Shown: positions 16,353 to 53,380 of the stretch, one piece after another
How the letters are laid out: every line of letters starts with the position of its first letter
Position numbering within the stretch: the first letter of the stretch is position 1
Program-made: the position numbers and the translations under genes
The notes under the pieces: generated by a model
What the model saw: only the letters and a program-made list of their open reading frames with translations
Told to the model about the DNA's origin: nothing
Databases searched by the model: none
NCBI GenBank assembly: GCA_009773045.1
Contig: WOUV01000001.1
Location: 1 to 57,412 of the forward strand
DNA length: 57,412 bases
Source: Rhodospirillaceae bacterium
GTDB lineage: Bacteria > Pseudomonadota > Alphaproteobacteria > Rhodospirillales > Rhodospirillaceae
Direction of reading: 5' to 3'

Positions 16353-17654
16353 TCACTTCCAGCTATCGGCGATAATGTTATCGAACCAACTGTGAGCGTA
16401 TGAAACCTCGCGTTTCAGCATGACCGGCGAGGCATCACTGGCCGTCACTTCCGCCTTGCCGACGATTTCCTTTTTCTCCTCGTCGAAACGATACACCGCC
16501 GCGACCGAGAACCCATAATCGTGCCCGGCGATGCTGTAGCAGGTATTCACATAAGAGGGCGTGCCCGGTTCCTTGCCGGCCAAGGCGGCCACCACGGCGG
16601 CGGCCGTCACCTTGGCCTGGGAGTTTGCGGCATAGGCCGACTTTGGCATGACACCGGCAACGCACGCATCCCCGATGACATAAACCCCTGCCTGCAAGGT
16701 GGATTCAAAGGTTTTCTGGTTGACCGGACACCAGCCCTTATCGTTGACAAGGCCGGCGGCGGTGGCGATGCTCCCCGCCTTCTGGGGCGGAATGACGTTC
16801 AGGACATCGGCCTTGAAATCCTCCGTCTGGGCCTGGATCGTCAAGGCCTTGGGGTCGATCTTGTCCACCTTGCCGCCTTCAGCGCCGGGGACCCATTTGA
16901 TCATGGACTCCGGCGTGCCATAGCCATACATCCGGGTCCATGCTTGGATGAACAGTCCCTTTTTGGCAAAATCGTCCTTCGGGTCAAGAATGATGATTTT
17001 TGACTTGGTCTTGCCGTGGGTCTTGAAATAATGCGCAAGCAGGGAGGCTCGCTCATATGGCCCCGGCGGGCAGCGGAAGGGATTGGGGGGCGCAACGATC
17101 ACCACCGTTCCGCCATCCTTCATGCTTTCGATCTGCTTTTTCAAAAGAAGCGTTTGCGGGCCGGCCTTCCAGGCATGGGGAATGGTTTCGCTTGCGGCTT
17201 CGTCATAGCCTTCGATGGCGCCCCATTTGAAGTCGACGCCGGGTGAAACGATGCAACGGTCATAGGCGTAGGTCTTACCCCCTTTGGTCGCAACCGTTTT
17301 TCCCACCGGGTCGATGCCGGTCACGGTGTCGATGACAACAGTGATTCCGTGCTTTTTCAGGTCGTCGAAACCGATGGTGAGGGAGTCCATTGTGCGCTCG
17401 CCTATGACGGCTTCGTTCGACAGGAAACAGCTCACATACTTTTCGCTGGCCTCGATCACGGTCACATCAAGGTTCGGATCGGCCATTTTCAGGTATTTGG
17501 CAGCCGTGGCGCCGCCCGGGCCTCCTCCGACGACCACCACCTTCTGGCCCGCCGCCGCGGCGCCGCGGGCGATGAACGGCATGCCGACCACCGGGGCCAC
17601 TGCTGCCGTTGCGACCGTGAATTTAAGGAAGTTACGACGATTGACGGTAAACAT
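16353..17654 (-). CDS. fccB: flavocytochrome c sulfide dehydrogenase, flavoprotein subunit
   Basis: Tat signal (RRNFLKF), FAD dinucleotide fold VVVVGGGPGGATAAKYL, and full-length resemblance to FccB/SoxF. Lies directly downstream of a dihaem cytochrome gene. Confidence 0.85.
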   Translation of the reverse strand: MFTVNRRNFLKFTVATAAVAPVVGMPFIARGAAAAGQKVVVVGGGPGGATAAKYLKMADPNLDVTVIEASEKYVSCFLSNEAVIGERTMDSLTIGFDDLKKHGITVVIDTVTGIDPVGKTVATKGGKTYAYDRCIVSPGVDFKWGAIEGYDEAASETIPHAWKAGPQTLLLKKQIESMKDGGTVVIVAPPNPFRCPPGPYERASLLAHYFKTHGKTKSKIIILDPKDDFAKKGLFIQAWTRMYGYGTPESMIKWVPGAEGGKVDKIDPKALTIQAQTEDFKADVLNVIPPQKAGSIATAAGLVNDKGWCPVNQKTFESTLQAGVYVIGDACVAGVMPKSAYAANSQAKVTAAAVVAALAGKEPGTPSYVNTCYSIAGHDYGFSVAAVYRFDEEKKEIVGKAEVTASDASPVMLKREVSYAHSWFDNIIADSWK

Positions 17655-17669
17655 GGGTGCATCCCCCCC

Positions 17670-18257
17670 TTACTTCTTGCTGCCATAGAAGTGAACAAGC
17701 GCCTCGATGCCAGTATCTTTATGCTCATTCACCACTGCATCGACCTTGGATTTCATTTTCTTGTCAGTCGGTCGTGTTCCGGAAGCATAGTCATCAAGGG
17801 TCGCGTGCAAATAGAGCATCCACTGGCCCGCCAGTATGCCGGCCCCCTCACCGCTGCTGCCGCCGTTCTCGTGGCACTTCTCACACTGCTGATTGTGCAG
17901 GGTTTCCCCCAGCTTGGCCTTGGCAGGGTCCGTCTTTTGGTTGGCGGGAACGAATTTCTGTTTGGCGAAGAACGCTCCCATCGCCGTGATTTCATCGTCG
18001 CTGTAAGGTTTGGCGAGACGAACCATCACCGTGGACGCCCATTCGCCTTTCTTGTAGCCCTGCATGGCGGACGTGAAATAGTCGGCATCGATTCCGGCAA
18101 GGGTTGGAATCGAAGGACCGACGCTGACGCCGTTCGTTCCGTGACAGCCGGCGCACGCATTGGCCAACATTTCCGGCGTGGTGGGATCGGCGGCGAAGCT
18201 GTTGCCGGCGACCACCAATCCCCCCAACAGTACCAAGAAACCTATTTTGTTTCTCAT
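17670..18257 (-). CDS. fccA: flavocytochrome c sulfide dehydrogenase, dihaem cytochrome c subunit
   Basis: Two CxxCH (CAGCH, CEKCH). The signal peptide MRNKIGFLVLLGGLVVAGNSFA starts from the internal ATG at 18257, which is preceded by GGGAAG. The gene ends 16 nt upstream of fccB. Confidence 0.75.
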   Translation of the reverse strand: MRNKIGFLVLLGGLVVAGNSFAADPTTPEMLANACAGCHGTNGVSVGPSIPTLAGIDADYFTSAMQGYKKGEWASTVMVRLAKPYSDDEITAMGAFFAKQKFVPANQKTDPAKAKLGETLHNQQCEKCHENGGSSGEGAGILAGQWMLYLHATLDDYASGTRPTDKKMKSKVDAVVNEHKDTGIEALVHFYGSKK

Positions 18258-18609
18258 GGTCTTCCCTCTGTCTTGAGTCAACAGAAATACAACCATCCCC
18301 CAACGATCATTGGGGAACGATTCGCAGAACCGTTCCCGCACCGTCTGCACAATGGCAAACACTCCCTTCTCACGACATGCGCTAATGACACGCGCCAACG
18401 CACGACCCAAAAGGGTACGCAGCAACATTCTCCTGCACTACACAATGGACAGTATCAATGAGTATGGTCTATACTTCAGGTATGGCGTATTGCTCTCGTC
18501 CATGTCCCCCTTGCCGTGCCACTTCCCCCCGTATCACCTCTTCCCGTCAAAGGCAAGACCTTGACGTGGAAGGGGTCGGAAAAAATACCAGAATCGTAAA
18601 AGTGCGGCC

Positions 18610-19236
18610 TCACTCCTCAACGCCTGAAGGCAACGTGTGGGCAATTCCCTGGTGGCAGTCTATACACGTTTTGCGTTCATCCCCTTTCTCTTTCATGATA
18701 CGCTGATGTTTCTTGGCGGCCGTTTTGTCCTGATCATCGAACTTCATGGCGTTGAAGTCATGGCACGAACGGCATTCACGGGAATCCGTCGCCTTCATTT
18801 TCGCCCATACGCCCTTGGCCATTTCAAGGCGGAGGGCCTCATATTTTTCCGGTGTATCGATGACCCCCGTGATGCGGCCCCAGACATCCTTGGCGGCAGC
18901 CAGCTTGGCCAAGTATTTCGGCAGACCGCCTTCCGGCACGTGGCAATCCGGACATTCGGCACGGACGCCAACACGGTTGAGATAATGTTTCGTCTTCTGT
19001 AACTCGTTGAGAGCGGTTCCCATTTCGTGGCATCTGGTACAAAAAGCCGTCGTGTTCGTGTTGGCCAGCGCCATATTGAACACGACGATGCCCCCCGCCC
19101 CCCCCACAAGACCGATGATGAGCACGACTCCCACGGCAAGTCGCGCACTGGGGCGCCACAACCACATCCAAAGCCGCCTGATGACGTTCAAGGTTATTCT
19201 CCCCCTAAAATCCATAGCATTTTTTGCATACACCAT
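18610..19236 (-). CDS. NapC/NirT/CymA-family membrane-anchored tetrahaem cytochrome c
   Basis: N-terminal TM helix (LAVGVVLIIGLVGGAGGIVVF) and four CxxCH (CTRCH, CPDCH, CRSCH, CIDCH) with family-typical spacing. Confidence 0.8.
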   Translation of the reverse strand: MVYAKNAMDFRGRITLNVIRRLWMWLWRPSARLAVGVVLIIGLVGGAGGIVVFNMALANTNTTAFCTRCHEMGTALNELQKTKHYLNRVGVRAECPDCHVPEGGLPKYLAKLAAAKDVWGRITGVIDTPEKYEALRLEMAKGVWAKMKATDSRECRSCHDFNAMKFDDQDKTAAKKHQRIMKEKGDERKTCIDCHQGIAHTLPSGVEE

Positions 19237-26002: not shown

Positions 26003-27375
26003 GACCCTGCCATCCGCCGGAAAGAATCGACCACCCCCTGCACGTGCCCCACCTCGCGGATCGCCAGCCCCCTTTCCCCCTTTCCCCCGGAACGGTGGGG
26101 CGGTGGGATCATGGCCTGAACGAATCCAAGTTTGACCGCTTCCTTCAGCCGGACATCCCGTTGCGCGACGGCGCGAACCTCGCCCGACAAACCGATCTCC
26201 CCGAAAACCACCATGTCCGCCGCCACTGCCATACCCGTTGCCGCAGACACGAGAGCGGTGGCCACGGCAAGATCCGCCGCGGGTTCGGTGATGCGCAATC
26301 CCCCGGCAACGTTCAAATAAACGTCCCGCGCGCCCAAAGCAAGACCGCAACGCGCCTCCAGCACGGCCAGCACCATGGCGAGGCGGTTACCATCCCACCC
26401 CACCACGGCCCGGCGCGGCGTGCCGGGCGTGCCCACCAGGGCCTGGATTTCCACCAGCACGGGCCGCGTGCCCTCGATGCCCGCAAAGACGCAGCTTCCC
26501 GCAACATTGCCCCGCCGTTCGGCCAGAAACAGGGCCGACGGATTGGCAACCTCCGTCAGGCCGGCGCCGGTCATCTCGAACACGCCGATTTCATTGGTCG
26601 GACCGAAGCGGTTTTTCATGGCCCGCAGAATGCGAAACGGGTGGCCGCGTTCGCCTTCGAAATACAAAACGGTATCGACCATGTGCTCCAGCACCCGGGG
26701 ACCGGCGATCATGCCTTCCTTGGTGACATGTCCCACCAGAAACAACACAAGCCCCCGTCGTTTGGCAAGACGGATCAGTTCGTGGGCGCTCGCGCGCACC
26801 TGGGCCACCGTTCCCGGCGCCGAGTCGAGGGTATCGACGAACATGGTCTGGATGGAATCGATCACCACCACCGTCGGAGGGACGGCAGTGTCCAGGGTGG
26901 CGAGGATGTCGCGCACACTGGTGGCCGTGGCGAGATCGACCTTGGTTTTGGCAAGGCCCAGCCGGACGGCCCGCAGCCGCACCTGGTCCACCGCCTCCTC
27001 GCCCGAAATGTAGATGGAACGGGCGGCGCCCGCCAGGGCAGCGCACGCCTGGAGCAACAGGGTAGACTTGCCGATGCCGGGGTCGCCCCCGACCAGCAGC
27101 GCCGATCCCCCCACCAGCCCGCCGCCGCACACCCGGTCGAGTTCGGCGATGCCGGTCGCGAGCCGGGCGGGCTGTTCGCTCGTGCCCGCAAGCCCGACGA
27201 ACACGACCCCCTGCCCCCCTTTTGCCGGGTCAAGCCCTTTGGGAGCGATGGCGGCCTTTGTTTCCTCCACAAGACTGTTCCAGCTTCCGCACCCCTCGCA
27301 TCGTCCGCCCCACCGGGCATGTGCCGTGCCGCAGGACTGGCAGACGAAAGCGGTGACGGCGCGCTTCATGGGCAC
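25999..27375 (-). CDS. radA: DNA repair protein RadA
   Basis: N-terminal zinc ribbon CQSCGTAHARWGGRCEGCGSWNS, Walker A GDPGIGKST, the KNRFG motif and a Lon-like C-terminal domain. Confidence 0.95.
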   Translation of the reverse strand: MPMKRAVTAFVCQSCGTAHARWGGRCEGCGSWNSLVEETKAAIAPKGLDPAKGGQGVVFVGLAGTSEQPARLATGIAELDRVCGGGLVGGSALLVGGDPGIGKSTLLLQACAALAGAARSIYISGEEAVDQVRLRAVRLGLAKTKVDLATATSVRDILATLDTAVPPTVVVIDSIQTMFVDTLDSAPGTVAQVRASAHELIRLAKRRGLVLFLVGHVTKEGMIAGPRVLEHMVDTVLYFEGERGHPFRILRAMKNRFGPTNEIGVFEMTGAGLTEVANPSALFLAERRGNVAGSCVFAGIEGTRPVLVEIQALVGTPGTPRRAVVGWDGNRLAMVLAVLEARCGLALGARDVYLNVAGGLRITEPAADLAVATALVSAATGMAVAADMVVFGEIGLSGEVRAVAQRDVRLKEAVKLGFVQAMIPPPHRSGGKGERGLAIREVGHVQGVVDSFRRMAGS

Positions 27376-27384
27376 ACCGCTCCC

Positions 27385-28068
27385 TCAGGCGCGCACCAGA
27401 TGGCCGGCCAGGAAGGCGGTGGTCCGTGACCAGGCTTCCTGCGCGCAGTCGGGGCGAAAATCTTCCCGCCGGTCACAGTTAAAGCCGTGTCCCGCCGCGT
27501 ACAAATGACACGTGACTTCCGGATGGGCCGCCATGATGGCGTCTTGATCGGCGGGGGGAATGATGGAATCATCCCGCCCGAAGTGCATCATGACCGGACA
27601 GAACGAATGCTCGTCAAGAAACTGGGCAATCTGCCCACCGTAATAGCACACGGCGGCCTGGAACGGCAGACGGCACGCCGAAAGCCATGCCAGGGACCCG
27701 CCCCAGCAGAAGCCCACCACCCCCACCGTGCGTTCGCCCCCTTCGGCGGCCACGTATTCGCGCGCGGCCTCGATATCGAGGAAGGGTTTTTCCCACCCCA
27801 AGGCCAGGCGGAGCGCCCGCCCCCGGGCCAGGTCCTCCGCGCCATAGTCCAAGGCGACGCCCCGTTCCAGCCGATCGAAAACGGCCGGGGCAATCGTTAC
27901 ATACCCTTCGTGCGCGAAACGATCGACAAGGGCGCGGATATGGCCGTTGACCCCAAAGACTTCCTGCATCACGACCAGACCGCCCCGCGAGGACCCGCCA
28001 CTCGGCCAGGCGACATAGGCCTCGAAAAGATGCTCGTCCCGTGCCGCAAGCGTGATGATTTCTCCCAT
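27385..28068 (-). CDS. dienelactone hydrolase family protein
   Basis: DLH-family layout with nucleophile motif GFCWGG and C-terminal HGF. Start taken at ATG 28068, preceded by GGAAGGAAAGG. Confidence 0.75.
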   Translation of the reverse strand: MGEIITLAARDEHLFEAYVAWPSGGSSRGGLVVMQEVFGVNGHIRALVDRFAHEGYVTIAPAVFDRLERGVALDYGAEDLARGRALRLALGWEKPFLDIEAAREYVAAEGGERTVGVVGFCWGGSLAWLSACRLPFQAAVCYYGGQIAQFLDEHSFCPVMMHFGRDDSIIPPADQDAIMAAHPEVTCHLYAAGHGFNCDRREDFRPDCAQEAWSRTTAFLAGHLVRA

Positions 28069-32050: not shown

Positions 32051-34114
32051 TCACCCCCCGGCATGGTAACGATGACACAAAGTGCACCCTTGTGTTGCGT
32101 TTCCCTCGACATGACACGTTATGCAAACCTGCCGCGGTGTCGGGCGAAAAGCCGTTGCCGTGGGGGAACGCCAGGGATGACAGGCAAGACAACGCCCCTC
32201 GTCCGACAGAAGCGCCGGCGGAAGGGAATGGGGGGCGTGGTCAAAGGTTATAAAGGACTCCTCCCTGTGACGGCGAAAGGCCGGCGCCCATGGCTCGTCA
32301 CCCTGCCGGAACGTCTGGAGGGAATGGCATGTCAGACAGCGTTTGCCGGGGTCTCCAGATGCGATATCGTTCCCATCATCGTTGTCATCGTTCCCGATTG
32401 CCGGCGCTACCGTCACGATCATCTCAAGCCAGGCGCGCAAGAACGGATCGGCATGGGCCATGGGCCGGTAATACAACGTGAATCCCTTGCGATACCAGCC
32501 TCCGTACCGTTCTCCTGGATCGGCGGCGGGCAGGCTTCCCGGATTGGCGGCGGCGCGCGTAGTCCAGGGCGATGTTTCATCCTCTGACAGAAGACCATCC
32601 TCCTCGGGCAGAATTTCATCATCATCCTTGGAAAGCACAGTGCGGTCCACGGGAACGAGGGTCTCCTCCTGACGGGGCGGGGGAGAGGCGGGTGGGATCA
32701 CGACGCGCTCCCCGGCGCGAAACCGGGTGATTTCCTCCGGCAGGGCCGCAAGCCATTCCCGTTGCAAGGCCATCAGGACATCGCGCGGCAGGCCGGCCAT
32801 CAGGCGGACCAGAACGTTTCTCTCCGGCGCGTGCCCCAGGTGCGCCTGAAGCCGCGCTGCCAGCGCCGCATCGCCGGAGTCGATGAGATCCTGAACAAGG
32901 TTCTTGATCGCCCAGGCCAGCCGTTCCACCGCGGCGATTGTTTCCGGTGGGACCTTCGTCAGATCGCGCAGAACGATCCCGTCGAGGTGCGCAAGGTCGA
33001 CGGCGGCCTCCGGCAGCAGAAGCCAGGGCATGAAGGGTGTCAGTCGCGCCGTTGAAGACTCGGGCCATGTGCCGATGGCCGCTGCCCGCTGGCGCAAGGT
33101 TTCCAGATCCAGGCCGGGCAGGGAAAGAAAAGGGACCCCCCCCACTGCCGCCACCGTGCCGTCGATCTTGGATTGATGACAGTCGGCGCAAACGACATCG
33201 AACCGTTGCAGCCGCATGCCGGGGGATCCCTCTGCCACAAGGTGACAGGTGGTGCAGGTTATTTTCCTGTCCGTCACCTGAGCAGGGAACACGGTGTTGA
33301 TATGCTTGCCATGATTGAACGTGATTCGGGAAGGACCGACGGGATAGGAACCTGTCCGGGCATGTTCGTCGGCCGCCTGCGCGAACCAGCGCCCATGACA
33401 GCCCTGGCAGCGTATGCCGTCCCGGCCGCGCAGATCCGCCGCACGGCCGCGGTGTTCCCCATGGCAGAAGAAGCAGGCCACGGTATCGATCGACGTTTCC
33501 GCTGGGATCGTGTTCTCTGTCAAAGGGGTCTGCCGCAAGGCGGCCAGTCGCGCCCGTGGCAGGGTGTGGGGGGTCATCGGGTGGAGGCCACGCGCGTGGC
33601 ACCGCAGGCACCGCTCCGCCGCAACCGTTGGAGTGGGCCGGTGCGTGAGGGCTTGCGCCCACGCCGCCGGGTGCGTGGGCAGGGCGGCATGACAGATCGT
33701 GCAGTCCTCGATCATCCGGTGTTGCGGCGCCATATCGCCGGCCGCAAAATGCGCAAGGTCATGGCGGCTGCTGAAAAAGACGCCCATCAATCCAATGGTC
33801 AGAAGGGCCCCCCATACACTCAATACCCGTCGTCGGCCACGCCAGGTCCGGACGGGCACGCAAAAAGACCCTCCCTGCCCGCAGCGCCCATCGGGCAACG
33901 GCCCAGGCGCGCACGAACCGCCGGCGGTGCTGGGCCGGGTGCATTCCCAACGCTCGCCCCGGCGCGCCGGGGCGCACTGAAATGCACCCTGACACCGGCC
34001 TTTGCTGTCGGGTCCAAGGCGGCAGGGGGCCGTCTCATCGGTTTGACCGCAGTGCCACTTTTGGGTGGGACGTTCATAGGGGCTGTCACGATAGCCAAAC
34101 TTTTGCAGGCGCAT
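32051..34114 (-). CDS. signal-anchored decahaem cytochrome c with Cys-rich cytoplasmic N-terminal domain
   Basis: Ten CxxCH: CTICH, CLRCH, CFFCH, CQGCH, CTTCH, CADCH, then CLTCH, CLACH, CITCH, CTLCH. One TM helix (VLSVWGALLTIGLMGVFFS) is preceded by RGRRR. Eight Cys lie in the first 85 aa. The ATG is 3 nt after the upstream stop. Confidence 0.8.
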   Translation of the reverse strand: MRLQKFGYRDSPYERPTQKWHCGQTDETAPCRLGPDSKGRCQGAFQCAPARRGERWECTRPSTAGGSCAPGPLPDGRCGQGGSFCVPVRTWRGRRRVLSVWGALLTIGLMGVFFSSRHDLAHFAAGDMAPQHRMIEDCTICHAALPTHPAAWAQALTHRPTPTVAAERCLRCHARGLHPMTPHTLPRARLAALRQTPLTENTIPAETSIDTVACFFCHGEHRGRAADLRGRDGIRCQGCHGRWFAQAADEHARTGSYPVGPSRITFNHGKHINTVFPAQVTDRKITCTTCHLVAEGSPGMRLQRFDVVCADCHQSKIDGTVAAVGGVPFLSLPGLDLETLRQRAAAIGTWPESSTARLTPFMPWLLLPEAAVDLAHLDGIVLRDLTKVPPETIAAVERLAWAIKNLVQDLIDSGDAALAARLQAHLGHAPERNVLVRLMAGLPRDVLMALQREWLAALPEEITRFRAGERVVIPPASPPPRQEETLVPVDRTVLSKDDDEILPEEDGLLSEDETSPWTTRAAANPGSLPAADPGERYGGWYRKGFTLYYRPMAHADPFLRAWLEMIVTVAPAIGNDDNDDGNDIASGDPGKRCLTCHSLQTFRQGDEPWAPAFRRHREESFITFDHAPHSLPPALLSDEGRCLACHPWRSPTATAFRPTPRQVCITCHVEGNATQGCTLCHRYHAGG

Positions 34115-34117
34115 GGC

Positions 34118-35020
34118 TCAAGGGCTTCCCGCCGTGAAGGCATGCACCAGGATCCCATGGGCCGCCGATACGATCAAAAGCGCCGCCGTCAGGGGAACAT
34201 GAATGAAGAGCCACCCTTTGAGCATCATGTGATGCGCATGCAGGTAATCCAGATGATCCTTGAAACGGATCAGCTTTTCGATTTTCCCAAGCGATTCGCG
34301 CCCTGCTTCGTCCAGATACCGTTCCAGCGGACGCATTTCAAGGCTGATCCGGTGCACGGGATGGTGGGATTGGAAAAGATGGAACAGCATATGACGCGGC
34401 CCCCTGAAAAACGGCGCGAGGCGATGGACGTAAAAGTCCAGAATGACCATCGATCCCGTATCGCGGGTAAACGCCATGACCTCCTGTTCGACCAGACGCC
34501 CAAGTTTTGCCCGAAAGAACGGAATGCGTTCCATGAAAATCATTTCGTTGTTGCGACGACGATCCCCCCCCGCCTCGATATCGGCACGAGAGATCTGCCA
34601 CAGACGGATATGCGGACGCTCATGCAATCGCGCCGGTAGAAAGGTATAGAACGCCGCGCCAATCACTCCGCTCACCGCCACTGCGACGAACAAAGACCAC
34701 AGCCACCAGTCAAATCGCCCCTGCGGCAACCGTCCATCCGTATGCAGGACAAACACCCCCACCGCGCCCCAGCCGGTGGCGATGTGCACCCGTTGCTGCA
34801 CGGATGCCTTGAGAGTTGAGAGAGTGACAAGCCTTCGTTGCATGCCGAACAGCGCAAGCCAGCCCACGATCCCCACAAGCTCCCAGCCACTGAGGAACCG
34901 CACATCCCGGAAAGAGAAGGAAAAAGAGGCAGCGTACAAATGATTCGCCGCAAGAATCCCTCCCGCCAGAACGACGGTCGGAAAAACCTGCGCGGCCAGG
35001 CGTCCGAAAAACATCGTCAT
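34118..35020 (-). CDS. 5-TM membrane protein with two H-x13-H helices (putative dihaem b-type electron carrier)
   Basis: Four N-terminal hydrophobic helices, an Arg/Lys-rich loop of about 135 aa, and a fifth helix. His79/His93 (HIATGWGAVGVFVLH) and His274/His288 (HVPLTAALLIVSAAH) both have 13 intervening residues. ATGA overlap with the upstream gene. Confidence 0.6.
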   Translation of the reverse strand: MTMFFGRLAAQVFPTVVLAGGILAANHLYAASFSFSFRDVRFLSGWELVGIVGWLALFGMQRRLVTLSTLKASVQQRVHIATGWGAVGVFVLHTDGRLPQGRFDWWLWSLFVAVAVSGVIGAAFYTFLPARLHERPHIRLWQISRADIEAGGDRRRNNEMIFMERIPFFRAKLGRLVEQEVMAFTRDTGSMVILDFYVHRLAPFFRGPRHMLFHLFQSHHPVHRISLEMRPLERYLDEAGRESLGKIEKLIRFKDHLDYLHAHHMMLKGWLFIHVPLTAALLIVSAAHGILVHAFTAGSP

Positions 35021-36678
35021 GACCGTGCCAGCCAGCGGGCCAACGTGTAACGGTCACGCATATCGATGCGCACCAGGGCCTCGGTCGCGCAGGCCCGCTG
35101 GCAGGCCGGTCCGCCGCGCACGTCCGGGCAAAGATCGCATTTGGTGGCCCGCAAGGTCGGCTGCCGTCCGTTCCGCAACGGCCTGCCATCACTGTCTCGG
35201 ATCTCGACCATGCGGATGTCGTCATAGGGACAGGAATCGGCGCATGTGGCGCAGCCGATGCACAAGGTTTCGTCAATGACGACGCGGCCCGCCTGCGCCA
35301 GGCGGTGAATGGCCCCTGTCGGACAGCCGATCAGGCACACCGGGTCCACGCAATGCATGCAGGCATTGGCCACCATGATGTTGGTGCAATCCCGACCATG
35401 GCGGAGAAAGCGTGGATTGTTGTCATGGACAAGGCTGCACGCCCGCACGCACTCATCGCATTCCGTGCACCGGTCAAGATCGATGAGCATGACCGCGGTG
35501 CCATTGATGAAGCGATTGTCGATGAAGAAATCGATCAGGGCCTGTTCACGTCCCGACAGGGGCGGTCCTCCCTCCCTGAACGTGACGGGTCGCGGCGTGA
35601 AATCAGCCGACAACCGTGGCAGCACGTGCGCCTGCAAAACCTCCACCGGCACCTTCAGCACGTCGACATGCCCGATGGCGCTGACCCGGTGTCGATACAC
35701 CGGATGTTCCTGGGTCAGGATTTCCTCGAGTCCGATCATCTCGTTCCGCGCGACGAATCCTTCTGTACGATAGCTGGAGCCGTGGCGGACGCTGACGCGG
35801 GCAAAGCCCGAGCAGACCACGAGCAAATGGTCCAGGGGTTGACCTTCGTCAACCACGACCGGCTCGTATTCGATGATGGTCGAAACGCCACGGGCCATGG
35901 CCTGTTTGAACGTTCGCGTCCATTCGAACGAACCATAGGTTTCAAATTCGGTTTCGCGGGTGAGAACGTCAAGGACGTTCCGTTCAAGGGTGGCGAACAG
36001 AACGGATTCCAGCAGATGATTGGCAAGGGCGCGGGAACCATAAAGGCCGTCCAGATACTTCCGGAAATGCACGTCCCGGTAACGGATTTCCTGCAATCCC
36101 TGCCAGCGCAATTCCAGAAGCGTTGCGTCGCTCTCGGCAAACACCGTGGCCGTTCTCGCGCTCCGGGCCAGGGCGGCGATCATGCCAAAGCTTTGTCCTT
36201 CCACCAGCACCCGGGTGGGAAACGCGGTGATGACGGTTTCTGGATCTTCAAGATAAAGACGGGAGCCGATCTCTTCCGCCCTGCGCAACCGCGCAAACCC
36301 GAATCGGTTGGCCTGTTCGTCGTGGCGAATTTCCGGCATGTTGGGGGTCCGCCATGTCTGAAGGAGGGTCGTAAACCATGGCTTGTGGTCGAAAACAGGC
36401 CGGGCCGTGATCAGTTTCTCCACGCCAGGATCGACCAGCACCCGCAGCCGGCCCTTCAGGATGCCAAAGACGGTATGGCCATAGTCCCCCCTGCGCACAA
36501 CAATGTCGCCACGCCGACAGTGCCGCACGCGCGCATGACGCACAAGGATATCCCGAAGAGAGGACCCGGGAGGAAAATTCGCCTCGTTGACGGCACGAAA
36601 AAGCGGCAGGGCCAGAACCGGCTCGAGATCCTGGTTCTGCGTGTCCGGATCAAAGGGAGGAGCATATGGTGCGTTCAT
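35017..36678 (-). CDS. two cyclic-nucleotide-binding domains fused to a four-cluster [4Fe-4S] ferredoxin module
   Basis: Two cNMP-binding-like beta-barrels (GDIVVRRGDYGHTVFGILKGRL ... FGMIAALARSARTATVFA; a second at about aa 225-345). Then CTECDECVRAC, CMHCVDPVCLIGCP, CIGCATCADSCP and CDLCPDVRGGPACQRAC, a PsrB/DmsB/NrfC-like arrangement. Confidence 0.75.
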   Translation of the reverse strand: MNAPYAPPFDPDTQNQDLEPVLALPLFRAVNEANFPPGSSLRDILVRHARVRHCRRGDIVVRRGDYGHTVFGILKGRLRVLVDPGVEKLITARPVFDHKPWFTTLLQTWRTPNMPEIRHDEQANRFGFARLRRAEEIGSRLYLEDPETVITAFPTRVLVEGQSFGMIAALARSARTATVFAESDATLLELRWQGLQEIRYRDVHFRKYLDGLYGSRALANHLLESVLFATLERNVLDVLTRETEFETYGSFEWTRTFKQAMARGVSTIIEYEPVVVDEGQPLDHLLVVCSGFARVSVRHGSSYRTEGFVARNEMIGLEEILTQEHPVYRHRVSAIGHVDVLKVPVEVLQAHVLPRLSADFTPRPVTFREGGPPLSGREQALIDFFIDNRFINGTAVMLIDLDRCTECDECVRACSLVHDNNPRFLRHGRDCTNIMVANACMHCVDPVCLIGCPTGAIHRLAQAGRVVIDETLCIGCATCADSCPYDDIRMVEIRDSDGRPLRNGRQPTLRATKCDLCPDVRGGPACQRACATEALVRIDMRDRYTLARWLARS

Positions 36679-36915
36679 GGTCGATTCCCTCCTGTCTCGT
36701 CATCCCTTCGAGGGGACTTCTCAAAACCTTTTTCTCCCCCTCGATGGAGGCGGGTTGGGGGGGGGGAGTGATGGAGGTGCCCCAGGATGGGTGGCGTTCC
36801 ATCTGTTGATGCACACATCGTGGAACGTTATCACTCTTTTCCAGACTCGAACACTCCTCCCCCTCCTTCCCCATTACGGGGGAAGGTTTTCAGCAAGGAC
36901 TCGGAAAAGGGCCGT

Positions 36916-38178
36916 TCAGGCATCCAAAACAAGTTCAGAGCTGTTCGGAACGGCGATGCAGACCAGGCAGCGCTTTTGTTCATGGTCAAACGTCGCCGGT
37001 GGTTCATCCACATGGCAGATGCTGCCCCGCAGCACCGATGTGGTACAGGCGCCGCATTTTCCGGTCCGACAGCCGGTGGCAAGAATGATTCCATTGGCCT
37101 CCGCAAGATCAAGCAGTGAATGCTGCTCCCCTGTCCATTGCAGCGTCTTGCCGGAGCGATTGAAAACGATGCGCGCGCCTTCTTGTCCGCCCGGGCGACG
37201 TCCTCCGTCCCCCGCCCGGATGCTGTCCGGGGTGAAAGCCTCGATGCGAATATCCTTGTCGGGGACGCCCCAGGCACGCAACCCGCTCGTGATTGCCTCC
37301 ATCATGGGAGGGGGGCCACAAACATAGAACAGATAATTACTGGCAGGAAGCGTTTGCCGGAGCATGTCGATCGTGACGTGGCCCCGATAATCATATCCTG
37401 TTCCCGGCGGCCCGACAGGCGCGCTGTGGCAGACCAGCACATGAAGGGTGTCGCAGGATTTGGCCAGACGGCGCAAGTGCTCGTGCATGATCTCCTGGGC
37501 CTCGTTGCGAACGCCATAGAAAAGCCAAGCCTCCCGCCTTTTGGGTGCGTGGGCCAGCGCCGTCAGCATGCTGATGAAGGGGGTGATGCCGATTCCCCCG
37601 CCCACCATCACCACCGGGCGATCGTCGTTGACATCCAGGAAAAAACGTCCCTCCGGCATGCGGATATCGACGGTGGCCCCTTCTTCCAAAGAATCATACA
37701 GGAAGTTCGATGCGGATGGAATCCCTTGCCCCAGGGCGAAAGGTCTGACCCGCTTGACGGTGATGCGATAATGGGTCTGGATCGCGCTTGGCGCTTCCGA
37801 AAGCGTGTAACACCGGATGACAGGCGCCGTCTGGTTCGGGATGTCAAGGGAAACCGCAATGTGCTGGCCGGGCAGAAAGGACGGAATGGGCTTACCGTCG
37901 TGCGCCGTTAGATAGAAGGAGCAGATGTCTTCGGTTTCCCTGACTTTGCGGTCGATGCGAAATTTCCGCCATCCTTCCCACGACAGGGCGGCATGCCGTT
38001 GCTCCTCCAGCCTGCGCTCTGCATCGATTCTGACACGCTGCGCGAAAACAGTCAGCATGTGCCGCGCATGACGTGTTTCTGCCAACCGTCGCCACACAAG
38101 GCCATACAAGGCCACCACCACCTGGACCAGGGACAGGCCGATGATGCCATAAGCGCCCCATTCAATGACATGTGTCAT
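36916..38178 (-). CDS. membrane-anchored FNR-type flavin reductase with C-terminal plant-type 2Fe-2S ferredoxin domain
   Basis: From ATG 38178 (preceded by GGAGGAG): TM helix GAYGIIGLSLVQVVVALYGLVW, FAD motif RCYTLS, NAD(P)H motif VGGGIGITP, YVCGPPPM, and 2Fe-2S ligands CRTGKCGAC plus CLVC. Confidence 0.75.
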   Translation of the reverse strand: MTHVIEWGAYGIIGLSLVQVVVALYGLVWRRLAETRHARHMLTVFAQRVRIDAERRLEEQRHAALSWEGWRKFRIDRKVRETEDICSFYLTAHDGKPIPSFLPGQHIAVSLDIPNQTAPVIRCYTLSEAPSAIQTHYRITVKRVRPFALGQGIPSASNFLYDSLEEGATVDIRMPEGRFFLDVNDDRPVVMVGGGIGITPFISMLTALAHAPKRREAWLFYGVRNEAQEIMHEHLRRLAKSCDTLHVLVCHSAPVGPPGTGYDYRGHVTIDMLRQTLPASNYLFYVCGPPPMMEAITSGLRAWGVPDKDIRIEAFTPDSIRAGDGGRRPGGQEGARIVFNRSGKTLQWTGEQHSLLDLAEANGIILATGCRTGKCGACTTSVLRGSICHVDEPPATFDHEQKRCLVCIAVPNSSELVLDA

Positions 38179-38304
38179 GCGCTTGAAATCTCCTCCCCCT
38201 TGCGTTTCCGGGGGAACGCGAGGCCCGCTCCCGGCTTCGAGAGCGCAGGGCGGGCTTCCCGTGACATCGTGTGCGGAAGGTCCACGTTCCATGAGACCCC
38301 ATTT

Positions 38305-39321
38305 CTAGGGTTTTCCCTTGAACCGTGTTTCATCCGGCAACAAACCATCGAGCGCCGCAAGCACGCTTCCATCGTACTTTTCAACCATCGCCCGGGTGGC
38401 CACGGCCACTGCTTCGGCGGCCTGGAGTAACGCGACGCGATGGTTGATGCGCAACCCGACAGCTTCGCTCGCCGCAAGGATCTGCGTTATTTCGGGAAGG
38501 GCAAGAAGCGTTGCGATCTGGCGCATTGTCTTCTGGGCGGCGCGTGCCCGCTTTGCCATCGCCACGGCATAGGGGCCTTTGGTCGTGCTTTCCGCCACCG
38601 CCCGCAGCGCGGTTTCCAGATTCACCGCCACCCCCACGAGAAAAATCAGTCTCTGCCGTTCACGATCTGGCAGCCGGTTTTCCGCACCCGGTGTCTCGGC
38701 GATGGCGTGACGCACTTCGCCAAGACTCCAGGCCAGCAGTTCAAGGGACTCATCGCCCGGTTTATGGCCCCCACGATCGACCAGTTCTTCGTCTGTCGGC
38801 ACGTGGCAAGCATAACATCGTTTTGCCCATTCATAAACCCGCACGGGCCGGAGCATTCCCTCCCGCTCGGCCCGCCGCCAGCGCCGGGTACGTTCCTCGG
38901 CGGATTCCGTCTCGCGGGTCTTGCCGGAAAACTCGGCATGGGGTTTGTTCCAGGCAAAGCCCGCCCCATGACAGGACTCGCACGACACGCCCCCCACCGC
39001 CACCCGTTTCCGGCGGTCCATGGCGATCGTTGCATGACAGCCGGTGCACCGTGAGGCAAGATCGGCGTTCCGGATGTCCAGCTTTCCGGCCATCGTTGCC
39101 GCTTCCGGTTTCTGCACAAGGGTGTTCAAGGCATTGGCATGATGGGAGGCCTGCCAGTGCGTGGTCACGGCCTTGTGGCACTGGGCGCAGGCGAAGGATC
39201 CAACCACCCGTTCCGGGTCAATGATATCCTCCGCCCCCGCCGTTTCCGCGTGAGCGGCCCATTCCGGCACGCCCCAGGCCAACCCTGTCACCAGGACAAG
39301 GAAAACAAGGCGTGATTTCAC
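38305..39321 (-). CDS. periplasmic tetrahaem cytochrome c (c554-like N-terminal domain plus helical C-terminal domain)
   Basis: The GTG at 39321 is preceded by GGGGAGA and gives the signal peptide VKSRLVFLVLVTGLAWGVPEWAAHA. Four CxxCH (CAQCH, CTGCH, CESCH, CYACH). The ORF-track ATG at 39441 would overlap the upstream gene by 50 nt. Confidence 0.7.
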   Translation of the reverse strand: MKSRLVFLVLVTGLAWGVPEWAAHAETAGAEDIIDPERVVGSFACAQCHKAVTTHWQASHHANALNTLVQKPEAATMAGKLDIRNADLASRCTGCHATIAMDRRKRVAVGGVSCESCHGAGFAWNKPHAEFSGKTRETESAEERTRRWRRAEREGMLRPVRVYEWAKRCYACHVPTDEELVDRGGHKPGDESLELLAWSLGEVRHAIAETPGAENRLPDRERQRLIFLVGVAVNLETALRAVAESTTKGPYAVAMAKRARAAQKTMRQIATLLALPEITQILAASEAVGLRINHRVALLQAAEAVAVATRAMVEKYDGSVLAALDGLLPDETRFKGKP

Positions 39322-39391
39322 GCCACATTCTCCCCAAGGTTCCCCCCCTCCCTGTCGTTCACGCGTGTCTTGCCCTGGAGTGTGTCCGCGG

Positions 39392-40792
39392 TTACCGGTC
39401 GGCTGGCAGGGTTTGCAAATGAGCGACCAAATCAATGACAATTTGTTTCTCCAATACCCGCATCGGAGGCATCAGCTCATCCGGATGGCCATTGAGAACC
39501 ATATGTACGGCGTGCCATGGATTCTGGCGTGTCATGTGTCCCAGTGGCGGGGCGTTCGTTATCTTCCGGCCATCGAAGCCGTGGCAGGGTGCGCATATCG
39601 CTTCGTAATAGTGTTTGTACCGAACCGGATCGCCTTTGGCCACCGCCCCGTCGATGAACGAATCCAAATCCACCAGTCCTTTGTTGATGAAGGTCGCAAG
39701 ATCGAACTGGTCCCGGGCGTTCAGAATGCCGTTGTAGCGGTGGTTGGAATCCCCAAGGATGGTCAGGACGTCCTCCACCGGCAAGCCCGCCCTTAGGCTT
39801 TTGGCGATGACGGAGGGGGTAATGGCCCTGGCCTGCCCTTCCGTTCCCCGATAGTCCCAGCCATGGCACCCGCCACACCGCCAAGTCATTTCAGCCTGTA
39901 CGCCCGTCGTTTGCGTGGCGGGATAGGCCGGATGGAATCCCTTTGGCGCCGTGGCATGCGTTTCCAGAATCCAGTTATCATACAGCCGCCCGCCCCGCAC
40001 GACGGCGGCCAGGACATCCCGCACCGGGGGAGCCGTGTCGTCCGCGCGCTCGGGCAATGTTTGGAGAAAGGCCAGAAGATCGGTGATCCTGGCCTGCCCC
40101 AGAACACCGATGGCCGGCATTTTGGTTCCCGGATGGCCGACGAGGAGCTTGTGCAGGGTTTCATAGGGGCTGTGGCGGGCAAGGAATCCCACCGGCGGAA
40201 TATCCCGCGTTTCCGTTCCGTTTGCGCCGTGACAGTTGCTGCACACGGTCATGTAGAATTCGACCTGGGTTGTCTTGTCCCCGCGCGCCTGCCCCGTGGC
40301 CGGGTCGATCGAGTCGTTCATTTCGACCTGTCCCTGGCTGACGAACGCCGCCAAGGCATTGATCTGGTCATCGTAGAAAATATCGTCATAGCCGTGCGCC
40401 GGCGCATTGAGGACCGCGGCGATCTTGGCCGGGTCGGTGCCACGGAGCGCCCACAGCCCCGCGATGCCAGTATAACGGTCGCTTGTCTTGCCGTAGGCAC
40501 CATCCTTTCCCTTGTAATCCCAGCCATGACACGTGGTGCAACGCCATGTTTCTGCGGGCGTGCCGGTAAGTTTCCCGCCCGCGGGATACAGGGGATGGCG
40601 AACCTGGGGCGGCTTGTAGCGCAGTTCGAGAATCCAGTTGTCATACAGCCGCCCGCCAAGGGCGACCGCCCCTGGCACCTCCCCGGTCCGCGCCGGCACC
40701 CCCGACATGACCATCAGAACGCCTGCCACGGCAGCGAAGCGCACTCCCCTCCACAGCGTCTCCGCCATGGCCTTGCATACAATGTTCATCAT
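39392..40792 (-). CDS. periplasmic tetrahaem cytochrome c built from two tandem dihaem modules
   Basis: ATG 40792 is preceded by GGAGGGGGGGG. Signal peptide present. Module 1 (40049-40657) and module 2 (39401-39994) each start GGRLYDNWILE. Each contains WRCxxCHGWDY(K/R)G plus a class-I-like CxxCHG...MP site, and ends LQTLP. Confidence 0.75.
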   Translation of the reverse strand: MMNIVCKAMAETLWRGVRFAAVAGVLMVMSGVPARTGEVPGAVALGGRLYDNWILELRYKPPQVRHPLYPAGGKLTGTPAETWRCTTCHGWDYKGKDGAYGKTSDRYTGIAGLWALRGTDPAKIAAVLNAPAHGYDDIFYDDQINALAAFVSQGQVEMNDSIDPATGQARGDKTTQVEFYMTVCSNCHGANGTETRDIPPVGFLARHSPYETLHKLLVGHPGTKMPAIGVLGQARITDLLAFLQTLPERADDTAPPVRDVLAAVVRGGRLYDNWILETHATAPKGFHPAYPATQTTGVQAEMTWRCGGCHGWDYRGTEGQARAITPSVIAKSLRAGLPVEDVLTILGDSNHRYNGILNARDQFDLATFINKGLVDLDSFIDGAVAKGDPVRYKHYYEAICAPCHGFDGRKITNAPPLGHMTRQNPWHAVHMVLNGHPDELMPPMRVLEKQIVIDLVAHLQTLPADR

Positions 40793-40996
40793 GGTTCCCC
40801 CCCCTCCATTCTGGTATTCTGTAGGCAGCACCTGGATTTTTTGGTATCTTTCGTTCTGTTGCAACCCATACCATGCTGCCGTAAAAGGCAAAACCCTTTC
40901 ACCCTTCAGCGAAACAAAGAATTTTCTTGAAAAATAATCCAGGACCGCCGCCATGACAACGAAAAATGAAAAGACTTTACTCGTATCAACAACAGA

Positions 40997-41015
40997 TCCT
41001 ATCATTAATAGGATA
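40997..41015. promoter_or_regulatory. inverted repeat in the AT-rich leader upstream of the cytochrome genes
   Basis: atcctat catta ataggat (7-bp arms) inside the 367-bp AT-rich gap between the Crp/Fnr gene and the first cytochrome gene. It does not match the TTGAT-N4-ATCAA consensus. Confidence 0.2.
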
Positions 41016-41159: not shown

Positions 41160-41885
41160 CTATGCGTCCTTGGCGATGCGCCGCAGAGCCGTCTCATCAC
41201 AGTGCACGCGATGGCTGTCGGCAGGAAGGATGACCTGTGTCCGTTTGAATTCGGCAATGACCCGGCTAGCGGTTTCGGTGGTCACGCCCAGCATGGCGCC
41301 CACGTCTTCCCGGCTGAACAGGTCGCAGTCGCCCCCCGGTTCATCGTGCAGGATGCGCAACAAAAGCCGCGCCACCCGCGCCCGCGCCGGCCCGGTGGGC
41401 ATCTCCGTGATCCACTCGTCGGCCCGTGCCACCGATTGGTGCCAACGCAGCATCAGCTGCCGATGCAGCCGGGGAGTTTCCTCGCTCAGGCGCTGCACGA
41501 CATTGCGCGGAATGCGACAACACACCGCCGCACGTAAAGCGACAGCAGCATGCTCGTAGTTGCGGTCAAGCAGAACCTCAAGGCCAAGGGTATCGCCCTG
41601 ACGTAACAGACGAACGATTCGTTGCGTTCCATCGGACAGGTATTGTACCAGCTTGATCAAGCCGCTGCGGACCGTAAAAACCGCCGATCCCTCATCGCCC
41701 GTTTCATAAAGAACGCTGTCGGCGTTGTAATGAACCTCCTCGATCGGAAGGTGAATAAGCGAGAAGTCAGCTTCATCGAGATCCGCAAACAACGCCATAT
41801 CCCGAATGCCACAACCGTGGCATTGGGCTTGAGAGGACCAGGAAGCATCAATTTTATGTTTTCTCACGGTCCCTGCGATCCACAC
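41160..41885 (-). CDS. Crp/Fnr-family transcriptional regulator
   Basis: cNMP-binding-like effector domain (ADSVLYETGDEGSAVFTVRSGLIKL) and C-terminal HTH (REDVGAMLGVTTETASRVIAEFKR). N-terminal CHGC pair only, not the full Fnr cluster motif. Confidence 0.8.
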   Translation of the reverse strand: MWIAGTVRKHKIDASWSSQAQCHGCGIRDMALFADLDEADFSLIHLPIEEVHYNADSVLYETGDEGSAVFTVRSGLIKLVQYLSDGTQRIVRLLRQGDTLGLEVLLDRNYEHAAVALRAAVCCRIPRNVVQRLSEETPRLHRQLMLRWHQSVARADEWITEMPTGPARARVARLLLRILHDEPGGDCDLFSREDVGAMLGVTTETASRVIAEFKRTQVILPADSHRVHCDETALRRIAKDA

Positions 41886-45716: not shown

Positions 45717-47064
45717 ATTGTTCGCCGGCGCCGCCGGTTTCCCTTCCGCCTTTGCGGCGTTGCTGGCCGGCACGCGGGAGCGGAGCGTTGATGTGGAGGC
45801 CACCGTGCGCGCCATCCTTCAGGATGTTCGGGAACGGGGCGATGCCGCGGTGCGTGAATACACCCGCCGTTTCGATCACATCGACCTTGCGGTCGTCGGT
45901 TCTTGCATCAGCATCGCCGAACGGGATGCGTGCGCCGCCGCCGCTCCGGCCGCGGCGGTGGCCGCGCTGGAATTTGCCGCGGCGCGAATCCACGCCTTTC
46001 ACCAGCGCCAGCAACCGGCCGGCTTCAGCATGACCGATGAGGCCGGCGTGCGGCTGGAACAGCGCTGGACGCCGCTGCAATCCGTTGGCCTCTATGTGCC
46101 GGGGGGCACTGCGGCCTATCCATCCTCGGTCCTGATGAATGCCCTGCCGGCCAGGGTGGCGGGGGTCCCGCGGGTGGTGATGGTGGTCCCAACGCCGGAA
46201 GGGCGCATCACGCCCTTGGTGTGCGCCGCCGCCCGCCTCGCCGGGGTTGAGGAAATCTACCGCATCGGCGGTGCGCAAGGAATCGCTGCCCTGGCCTATG
46301 GTACCACGACCATCGCCCCGGTGGACAAGATCGTCGGTCCTGGCAATGCCTATGTCGCCGCGGCCAAGCGCCAGGTGTTCGGTCAGGTGGGGATCGACAT
46401 GATCGCCGGCCCTTCCGAAATCGTGGTGGTGGCCGATGGTCCCGGCAACGATCCCGACTGGATCGCCGCCGATCTGATGAGCCAAGCCGAACACGACACG
46501 GCGGCCCAGGCGATCTTGATCACCGACGACCCTGTGTTCGCCCGGGCGGTCATCGCGGCGGTGGAGCGCCTGCTGTCATGCCTGCCACGGGCCGACATCG
46601 CCGGCGCGAGCTGGCGCGATCATGGCGCGGTGATCGTGGTCGAACGCCTGGAGGATGCCGTGCCGCTGGTGAACGCCCTGGCGCCGGAGCACCTGGAACT
46701 GGCGGTCCTTGAGCCTGATTCCCTGGCGGCCGGGGTGCGCCATGCCGGAGCCATTTTTCTTGGGCGCCATACGCCCGAAGCGGTGGGCGATTATGTGGGG
46801 GGTCCCAATCACGTGCTGCCCACGGCCCGTAGCGCCCGTTTTTCCTCTGGCCTGTCGGTGTTCGATTTCCTGAAACGGACCTCGCTTTTGTCGTGCGATG
46901 CGGGGGCGCTGGCTCGCATCGGCCCGGCGGCCATGATTCTTGCCGAAGCCGAAGGCCTGACCGCCCATGCCCACGCCGTGGCCGTGCGCCTGAACAAAAA
47001 TTGGAATCAAGGGGGTATGGGGGAGGCCGTGCCTCCCCCATGCTTGGTTCAAAACAAACCATGA
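45706..47064 (+). CDS. hisD: histidinol dehydrogenase
   Basis: [19 protein letters not shown] and the PGG/GGAQ motifs. The ATG at 45706 overlaps the hisG end by 11 nt. The 3' end overlaps convergent cobD by 16 nt. Confidence 0.95.
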
Positions 47065-52764: not shown

Positions 52765-52860
52765 TCCTCCGTAACCGTGCGCCCGCGCTGACGAGCGCAC
52801 CTTGACTCCCCGGTCTGCCGCGCCCACGGTGAGGGGAGAGCCGATCGAAAGGATTTCCCC

Positions 52861-53340: not shown

Positions 53341-53380
53341 TTCCATCCCCCCGCGATCCGGCCCGCGCGCTGGTAGATGA

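Follow-up and report, generated by a model that had tools for sequence, protein, structure and literature searches.

The window analysed here, a stretch of 57,412 nucleotides from a Rhodospirillaceae bacterium (NCBI GenBank assembly GCA_009773045.1, contig WOUV01000001.1, positions 1 to 57,412 of the forward strand), contained on its minus strand a gene for a protein in which two cyclic nucleotide-binding (CNB) domains were joined to a ferredoxin domain with four cysteine motifs. The gene was an orthologue of ptdE, a member of the ptdABCDEFG cluster named in the marine oxygen-deficient-zone Alphaproteobacteria UBA11136 (bioRxiv 10.1101/2023.11.21.568154); since the family had already been named, the architecture itself was not new. 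The earlier note on this DNA, made from the sequence alone, had taken it as a ground for refutation if such an architecture was already described with a known role. A description and the name PtdE existed, and no role had been given, the function of the cluster being stated as completely unknown in the preprint. As judged from its sequence, the product of ptdE is probably a cytoplasmic Fe-S electron wire within a Ptd electron-transfer chain. The gene and the parts of its product were as follows.

35017..36678, minus strand: ptdE, open reading frame (ORF) of 553 residues; Pfam cNMP_binding and Fer4_11; 47% identity to Halofilum PtdE
36031..36621, minus strand: CNB-A barrel with B/C helices, residues ~20–216, from the secondary structure of the model and Foldseek
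36217..36435, minus strand: insert of ~70 residues in the CNB-A barrel, residues ~82–154, partly of low confidence in the model
36136..36189, minus strand: CNB-A phosphate-binding cassette FGMIAALARSARTATVFA, residues 164–181, from column counts and cassette alignment
35614..36030, minus strand: CNB-B, residues ~217–355, containing the best Pfam cNMP stretch
35497..35613, minus strand: linker, residues 356–394, partly of low confidence, with a conserved INGT motif at its end
35056..35496, minus strand: HydN/HycB/DmsB-type ferredoxin domain, residues 395–541, with 16 invariant Cys in four motifs

The Pfam family cNMP_binding (PF00027) matched PtdE with an E-value of 2e-18 and 66.6 bits (cutoff 27.5) in three stretches, the best of which covered residues 274–349. 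The AlphaFold2 model of PtdE, calculated with an alignment of 111 homologues, had a mean predicted local distance difference test (pLDDT) score of 85 and a predicted template modelling (pTM) score of 0.84. When the model was compared with the PDB by Foldseek, the best matches were the tandem CNB-A/B domains of PKA regulatory subunits (PKA-R) and PKG, with an E-value of ~1e-16 and a probability of 1.0 over ~340–360 aligned columns at 11–16% identity. Because of these matches, the N-terminal ~355 residues of PtdE were assigned as a PKA-R-like double CNB module. The insert in the CNB-A barrel held the family-invariant residues W109 and R118 and the near-invariant residues Q107, N111, and E116; these and all column counts of PtdE given below were taken over the same 111 homologues. 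No HTH_Crp_2 or Crp match was found in PtdE with Pfam, and a neighbouring regulator gene (41160–41885) had both. The N-terminus of PtdE was neither hydrophobic nor of the twin-arginine type, and the protein was predicted to be cytoplasmic.

The ferredoxin domain contained 16 invariant cysteine residues, C404/407/410/414, C440/443/448/452, C473/476/479/483, and C514/517/526/530, which are sufficient for four predicted [4Fe-4S] clusters. Two 4Fe-4S clusters were counted for PtdE in the preprint (10.1101/2023.11.21.568154), whereas the sequence supports four cluster sites. Several 4Fe-4S families of Pfam matched the domain, with Fer4_11 at residues 434–535 scoring 36.0 bits against a cutoff of 26.2. 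Residues 397–540 were aligned end-to-end with positions 5–157 of the 181 positions of the HydN profile and with residues 6–159 of HycB3 (PDB code 7qv7_A; E-value 1.3e-15), and the AegA, DmsB, and DsrO profiles were also aligned with the domain. PtdE failed every NCBIfam equivalog, including HydN, DmsB, DsrO, NrfC, and TtrB, with scores of 34–57 bits against cutoffs of 200–1150 (56 bits against 260 for HydN). All that the earlier note had observed in the gene agreed with these results: the two cNMP-binding barrels, the Arg-containing cassette in the first barrel (residues 164–179, with R175 present), the insertion of ~70 residues in the same barrel, the four Cys motifs of the electron-transfer-subunit type, the absence of a twin-arginine translocation (Tat) or Sec signal, and the overlap of the stop codon with the start of a gene for a bis-His membrane protein, in which four invariant His residues were found.

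That membrane protein was PtdF. The ptdE stop codon overlapped the ptdF start codon by 4 bp (ATGA, in the context tcATGAcg), and ptdE is predicted from this overlap to be translationally coupled to ptdF. The ptd genes of the window were identified by tblastn with the Halofilum ochraceum cluster (locus L001) as the query, and the percentages below refer to this comparison. The genes around ptdE were as follows.

41160..41885, minus strand: Crp/Fnr-family regulator gene (HTH_Crp_2 and Crp), upstream of the cluster
39392..41005, minus strand: tetraheme class-I cytochrome c gene, upstream, ORF of 537 residues, lineage-specific
38305..39441, minus strand: ptdD, 42% identity, c554-like tetraheme cytochrome c with four CxxCH motifs and a signal peptide
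36916..38292, minus strand: ptdC, 41% identity, FNR-like NAD(P)H oxidoreductase, membrane-anchored by an N-terminal transmembrane helix
34118..35020, minus strand: ptdF, 37% identity, membrane protein of 300 residues
32051..34114, minus strand: ptdG, 37% identity, decaheme cytochrome c of 687 residues with 10 CxxCH motifs and one transmembrane helix (residues 97–115)

The true start of ptdD probably lies downstream of the listed TTG, and that of ptdC is probably near M39. The cluster was flanked by ribF and a dihydrouridine synthase (Dus) gene. PtdB was not matched in the 57-kb window, and PtdA gave only a weak match, to a NapC/NirT tetraheme gene at 18610–19236. In the preprint, PtdA was described as a pentaheme cytochrome with a beta-sandwich, PtdB as a porin, PtdC as an FAD/NAD(P) oxidoreductase, PtdD as a periplasmic tetraheme cytochrome, PtdF as a "ferric reductase-like" membrane protein, and PtdG as a decaheme cytochrome, and high transcript levels of the cluster were reported from oxygen-deficient zones of the ocean (10.1101/2023.11.21.568154). 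A non-coding gap of 237 bp (36679–36915) separated ptdC from ptdE, a position that was filled by ptdD in most other loci. A promoter and terminator scan of the cluster gave nothing above shuffled controls and nothing in this gap, and Rfam had no match in the cluster. The search for FNR boxes (TTGAT-N4-ATCAA, at most one mismatch) returned a single site, at 20071, away from the cluster and at chance level.

PtdC was composed of FAD_binding_6, NAD_binding_1, and a C-terminal plant-type 2Fe-2S domain. It scored best with the reductase part of flavohemoprotein (Hmp) and with BenC-, MmoC-, and PaaE-type reductases, and was matched weakly by the Pfam family NAD_binding_6, the NAD domain of ferric reductases. 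Residues 1–95 of PtdG (33830–34114, minus strand) formed a domain of their own before the transmembrane helix, which was predicted to be cytoplasmic and had eight conserved cysteine residues (C22, C31, C41, C47, C58, C68, C78, and C85) in the motif ...YERPxQKWxCG...PCRxGPD..G.C....EC.P...G.RW.CTRP...GG.C..GP.PDG.C.... The domain was also present at ten related loci (L001, L002, L003, L013, L014, L023, L033, L052, L071, and L072), and may serve as a docking module for PtdE or PtdF that binds Zn or Fe-S. In the available part of the preprint, PtdG was given as a periplasmic decaheme cytochrome and the eight-cysteine domain was not mentioned (10.1101/2023.11.21.568154).

The PtdE family was widely distributed. 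The protein search returned thousands of matches, of which the best 120 were full-length with identities of 43–49%; the source annotations of the matches included "cyclic nucleotide-binding domain-containing protein". Relatives were present in at least 589 species genomes (one genome per species) of Alpha-, Gamma-, and Zetaproteobacteria, Magnetococcales, SAR324, Planctomycetota, Verrucomicrobiota, Nitrospinota, Methylomirabilota, Gemmatimonadota, Elusimicrobia, and Kiritimatiellae, the closest among the matches listed being from Ferruginivarius sediminum (49%). An exhaustive search of representative sequences with a PtdE–PtdF profile yielded 1348 clusters (50% identity) at E-values of 1e-30 or lower. 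The profile (826 positions) was dominated by PtdE columns from three fused rows, and no remote relatives of PtdF were obtained with it.

Among 81 related loci, PtdF followed PtdE in 79, and PtdD was present in 77, PtdG in 76, PtdC in 69, PtdB in 50, and PtdA in 48. When the ORFs of these loci were clustered, PtdA–G alone were widely conserved. These counts indicate a conserved core of C-D-E-F-G with A and B as accessory genes. The window shared with the published cluster the CNB and 4Fe-4S architecture of PtdE, which had 43–49% identity to orthologues, and the neighbours PtdC, D, F, and G (10.1101/2023.11.21.568154). The two clusters differed in that the window lacked PtdA and PtdB, had the order D-C-E-F-G instead of C-D-E-F-G, carried the additional upstream tetraheme class-I cytochrome c and Crp/Fnr genes, and had Met in place of Glu in the cassette of CNB-A. 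PtdA and PtdB were also absent within 10 kb in ~30 of the 81 loci, and the order of the window without A and B recurred in a metagenome-assembled genome (MAG) of Magnetococcales (L062). The upstream tetraheme and regulator genes had no counterpart in any of the 81 loci.

PtdE and PtdF also occurred as natural fusions. In nine of the best 120 PtdE matches, the protein was ~840 residues long and its C-terminal ~280 residues were aligned with PtdF of the window; on this ground these proteins were taken as PtdE–PtdF fusions. A further fusion of 858 residues was found in Oceanospirillum sediminis (L020). Because the linker in the fusions is short, the C-terminus of PtdE would be located at the membrane surface. 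A word-indexed search with PtdF returned only four proteins, and the C-terminal parts of the fused proteins were used for the alignment of PtdF. Four His residues were invariant in this alignment, H79, H93, H274, and H288, which made up two H-x13-H pairs on the helices of residues 69–94 and 238–297. The model of PtdF (pLDDT 80) was composed of helices 2–32, 40–63, 69–94, and 102–126, a helical region (residues 137–235), and a long helix (residues 238–297). Five transmembrane helices and a helical domain of ~130 residues in the cytoplasm were predicted, with the region of residues 137–235 on the cytoplasmic side. The fusion to PtdE places the N-terminus of PtdF in the cytoplasm, so that both His-bearing helices would run from inside to outside; the pair H79/H274 would then lie towards the cytoplasm and the pair H93/H288 towards the periplasm. 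This arrangement suggests that PtdF is a putative transmembrane diheme cytochrome b. The published label "ferric reductase-like" was neither confirmed nor excluded by the sequence and fold comparisons. PtdF of the window also had an insertion of ~22 residues, HERPHIRLWQISRADIEAGGDRRR, at residues ~132–155 (34550–34625, minus strand), in the cytoplasmic segment after the fourth transmembrane helix, which was missing from all 12 aligned homologues.

Taken with PtdC and the cytochromes, these features outline a possible electron path. NAD(P)H would be oxidised at the FAD of PtdC, and the electrons would pass to the [2Fe-2S] cluster of PtdC and from there to PtdE, which would sit with its four [4Fe-4S] clusters against PtdF on the cytoplasmic side. 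The clusters of PtdE would in turn reduce the two b hemes of PtdF, across which the electrons would traverse the membrane to PtdG and PtdD in the periplasm. In most other organisms they would continue to the outer-membrane module of PtdA and PtdB, which is absent from the window. The FNR-Fer2 reductase class, to which PtdC belongs, oxidises NAD(P)H, and the membrane potential likewise favours an outward movement of electrons. On both grounds the system would resemble a split NADPH oxidase or ferric reductase with an Fe-S wire, and the whole would be a NOX-like, split chain for NAD(P)H-driven electron export. Cofactor sites, topology, synteny, and fusions were read from the sequences and models; in which direction the electrons flow, and to which acceptor, we infer.

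The CNB-A domain adds a possible control point to this chain. The cassette-like stretch FGMIAALARSARTATV occupied residues 164–179 of PtdE, and the family consensus at this place was FGEIAALSRTPRTATVFA, in the form FGE...PRTATV. The cassette residues were strongly conserved over the homologues, with G165 in all 111, E166 in 109, R172 in all 111, R175 in 103 (His in the remaining 8), T176 in 83, A177 in 100, and T178 in 105. Of 64 further species genomes whose cassette matched a strict pattern, 63 also had Glu at this position and the remaining one had Gly. With a profile of the CNB-A half-domain, the cassette was aligned without gaps with Plasmodium PKG (E-value 2.7e-15), PKA RI-alpha (2e-10), and also HCN2, MloK1, SthK, and Epac, all of which are ligand-binding CNB domains. 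The CNB-A cassette is thus canonical at the family level, as far as sequence comparison goes. The Arg-Thr-Ala-Thr form is closer to PKG than to PKA, which does not settle the ligand specificity. PtdE of the window retained R172 and R175, the latter being the phosphate-contacting Arg, as well as T176, A177, and T178. Among the ligand-contacting residues, R175 was thus kept, whereas the Gly-Glu pair was replaced by G165-M166 and CNB-B of the window had S333 at a position where Arg was found in 89 of the 111 homologues.

Possible sources of a signal were encoded near some of the clusters. Class III adenylate/guanylate cyclase (PF00211) was the commonest family other than Ptd, at 11–12 of the 81 loci within 10 kb, and stood directly beside the cluster in eight loci. 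In Kiloniellales (L003), Rhodospirillaceae (L023), and SAR324 (L026), the cyclase gene directly preceded PtdA on its upstream side; in four loci of Planctomycetota it was divergent from PtdC, and in Tepidisphaeraceae (L018) it followed PtdG. The positions of these genes within their loci were as follows; cyclase genes were also present in L077, L078, and L081.

L003: 779–3148
L023: 300–2498
L026: 1272–3416
L042: 5638–7395
L046: 1428–2978
L060: 5526–7070
L068: 5629–7410
L018: 10308–11486

The cyclases associated with ptd had CHASE2, 7TMR-DISM, or FHA input domains. FHA (phospho-Thr-binding) domains were also found within PtdE relatives from the representative search, in P0132, P0136, P0183, P0200, P0229, and P0234. 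P0136 had two FHA domains at its N-terminus, and the FHA domain of P0132 was located between segments that were aligned to residues 118 and 138 of PtdE of the window, that is, inside the CNB-A insert. From this placement, the insert appears to be a site that accommodates extra regulatory modules. Four other relatives (P0177, P0193, P0195, and P0216) had N-terminal extensions of ~350 residues without a Pfam match; those of P0177, P0193, and P0195 were not PtdC fusions.

These features make gating of the PtdE chain by a cyclic nucleotide plausible at the family level, if somewhat short of probable. Binding of the nucleotide to CNB-A would switch the chain on or off by a shift of the CNB domains with respect to either the distal cluster or the docking site of PtdC. 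Its supply would fall, in several lineages, to the membrane-receptor cyclases whose genes lie beside the cluster; in these lineages they would make the nucleotide. PtdE is accordingly proposed here, tentatively, as a second-messenger-gated valve between PtdC and PtdF, for which an FHA/phospho-Thr input could be complementary in some lineages.

Several observations weigh against a gated diheme export chain in general, or against gating in this organism. PtdF had no Pfam match at standard thresholds, and its model gave no significant match to the PDB with Foldseek (best E-value 0.49; cytochrome b561, 2.5; the transmembrane part of NOX5, 2.9). Heme binding by PtdF therefore rests on the His pattern together with faint Pfam matches, which were obtained from seven PtdF homologues at E-values up to 5 (DUF4405, 0.009–0.09; Ni_hydr_CYTB, 0.005–1.5; Ferric_reduct, 1.2–3.1). 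The literature search for functional work on the CNB/4Fe-4S architecture returned the ptd preprint alone and no measurement of a cofactor, a ligand, or an electron-transfer step on a homologue. At the cassette, PtdE of the window had M166 in place of the Glu that contacts the ribose 2'-OH, the sole Met among the 111 homologues (one other had Ala), and A174 at the position of the usual Pro. CNB-B had a non-canonical cassette across the whole family: it read G316-L-E-E-I, its loop was longer, and its Arg was not followed by [ST]-A-[ST]. No cyclase gene was found in the 57-kb window. The cyclase adjacency was limited to the 11–12 loci noted above, was partly due to shared ancestry (the four Planctomycetota), and was counted without a genome-wide background rate.

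The cassette substitutions, the degenerate CNB-B, and the lack of a cyclase gene in the window speak for PtdE as a constitutive wire, in which the CNB tandem would be a structural scaffold or serve the docking of PtdC or PtdF or dimerisation, and would no longer respond to a nucleotide, at least in this organism. Plasmodium PKG offers an example of a degenerate CNB domain, and so does trypanosome PKA-R, whose ligands are nucleosides instead. However, near-universal purifying selection acts on the CNB-A cassette over phyla, as the counts for E166, R175, and T178 indicate, cyclase genes recur beside the clusters, and the window protein itself keeps the two Arg residues and the Thr-Ala-Thr stretch. 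A scaffold without nucleotide response was therefore considered rather unlikely as an account of PtdE. Because the cassette Glu is replaced by Met, nucleotide control is perhaps weakened, altered, or lost in this organism, and a PtdE that is constitutive or differently tuned here is a real possibility.

A second alternative concerns the electron acceptor in the membrane. PtdF could be a diheme b protein that reacts with quinone or quinol like NarI or FdnI, with the periplasmic cytochromes joined separately. Four-cluster ferredoxins are usually paired with quinone-reactive subunits (NarH–NarI, FdnH–FdnI, and DmsB–DmsC), and the faint Ni_hydr_CYTB and DUF4405 matches of the PtdF homologues point the same way. 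PtdF had no significant similarity, however, to NarI, FdnI, or NrfD-type proteins with Pfam or Foldseek, and ptdG, which encodes a membrane-anchored decaheme cytochrome, strictly adjoined ptdF, which argues for direct transfer from heme b to heme c. The quinone-linked arrangement was accordingly judged improbable.

Still less probable is inward flow, by which electrons from periplasmic or extracellular donors would pass through PtdG and PtdD, PtdF, and PtdE to NAD(P)+ for lithoautotrophy. The presence of ptd in lithotrophs (Mariprofundus, Acidiferrobacter, Nitrospinota, Magnetococcales, and Methylomirabilota MAGs) is consistent with such a direction, but heterotrophs (Roseibium, Oceanospirillum, Halofilum, and Tistlia) carry the cluster equally often. 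By textbook bioenergetics, the electrons would move against the membrane potential across the transmembrane diheme and uphill to NAD(P)+, and no ion-translocating subunit was conserved in the cluster over the 81 loci.

A signalling protein whose Fe-S clusters sense redox state or O2 and whose CNB domains relay the signal, with no electron conduit, would fit the sensor-type domains, the lack of a catalytic domain, and the Crp/Fnr regulator gene upstream in the window, but it is very improbable, since PtdE has four complete motifs in a HydN-like wire geometry and neither a helix-turn-helix (HTH) nor another output domain, since the upstream regulator is not conserved, and since the gene is locked beside, and sometimes fused to, the putative diheme gene within an electron-transfer operon, on which count the alternative offered in the earlier note, a redox-sensing regulator without an HTH, was set aside.

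The proposed export chain with a gated Fe-S wire was compared with known systems. PtdE shares the four Cys motifs and the proposed role of a wire docked on a membrane or catalytic partner with HydN, HycB, DmsB, and NarH, and like HydN, HycB, and NarH it is cytoplasmic. PtdE differs from these proteins in its preceding sensor module of ~390 residues and in the lack of a molybdopterin or hydrogenase partner; its own partner, unlike theirs, is a putative diheme protein of a previously undescribed family. The fold of residues ~20–355 is common to the tandem CNB domains of PKA-R and PKG (PDB codes 1rgs and 4z07), and the Gly-Glu...Arg-Thr-Ala-Thr sequence is kept at the family level. In contrast to these proteins, PtdE has the 70-residue CNB-A insert, a non-canonical CNB-B, and an Fe-S output in cis instead of a kinase, and the window protein is without the Glu.

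The logic of the ptd chain would be the same as in NOX/FRE proteins and MsrQ-Fre, namely a cytoplasmic NAD(P)H/FAD dehydrogenase, two bis-His hemes, and an acceptor on the outside. In ptd, however, three proteins share these parts, a four-cluster ferredoxin stands between the flavoprotein and the heme protein, and the acceptors are multiheme cytochromes. A putative porin with multiheme cytochromes, as in MtrCAB-type conduits, is also present in most ptd clusters. The inner-membrane entry of ptd would consist of NAD(P)H, Fe-S, and heme b, and not of a CymA/NapC quinol dehydrogenase, and the window is without the porin module.

To the published description of ptd, the present analysis adds the four cluster sites, the C-D-E-F-G core, the PtdE–PtdF fusions, the PtdF His residues, the eight-cysteine domain of PtdG, the canonical CNB-A cassette, the neighbouring cyclases, and the FHA variants. 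The widespread ptd "unknown porin-cytochrome complex" becomes a testable model of regulated, NOX-like NAD(P)H electron export. If the model holds, it would be, in the literature searched, the first subunit of an electron-transfer chain under direct control by a cyclic nucleotide, and would define a widespread NAD(P)H-driven electron export that bypasses the quinone pool. Gating of this kind would represent a new post-translational control of bacterial electron flow, with relevance to extracellular electron transfer, to iron and nitrogen cycling, and to engineered bioelectrochemical switches.

Elsewhere in the window, ~13 kb from the ptd cluster, genes of a flavocytochrome c sulfide dehydrogenase (FCSD) were located in the region 16353–19236 on the minus strand.

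16353..17654, minus strand: FCSD flavoprotein with a Tat signal
17670..18428, minus strand: diheme cytochrome c
18610..19236, minus strand: NapC/NirT-type tetraheme quinol dehydrogenase

FccAB was also reported to be expressed by the oxygen-deficient-zone Alphaproteobacteria of the ptd preprint (10.1101/2023.11.21.568154).

Near the right end of the window, a C4 antisense RNA (Rfam RF01695) was matched at 53679–53766 on the minus strand with 62 bits (gathering threshold 45) and an E-value of 1.2e-09. C4 antisense RNAs are typical of the immunity regions of P1/P7-like prophages, and given this habitat a prophage remnant may lie nearby. Large ORFs with a coding-like GC content at the third codon position and no Pfam match were found at 6982–9336 (minus strand, 784 residues), 26044–27429 (plus strand, 461 residues), 46893–48041 (plus strand, 382 residues), 4998–6020 (minus strand, 340 residues), and 52378–53412 (minus strand, 344 residues). 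A radical-SAM/DUF3463 gene (3136–4278, plus strand) adjoined a gene of the phosphorylase superfamily (PNP_UDP_1; 4231–4962, minus strand), and this pair (3136–4962) presumably resembles hpnH and hpnG of hopanoid biosynthesis.

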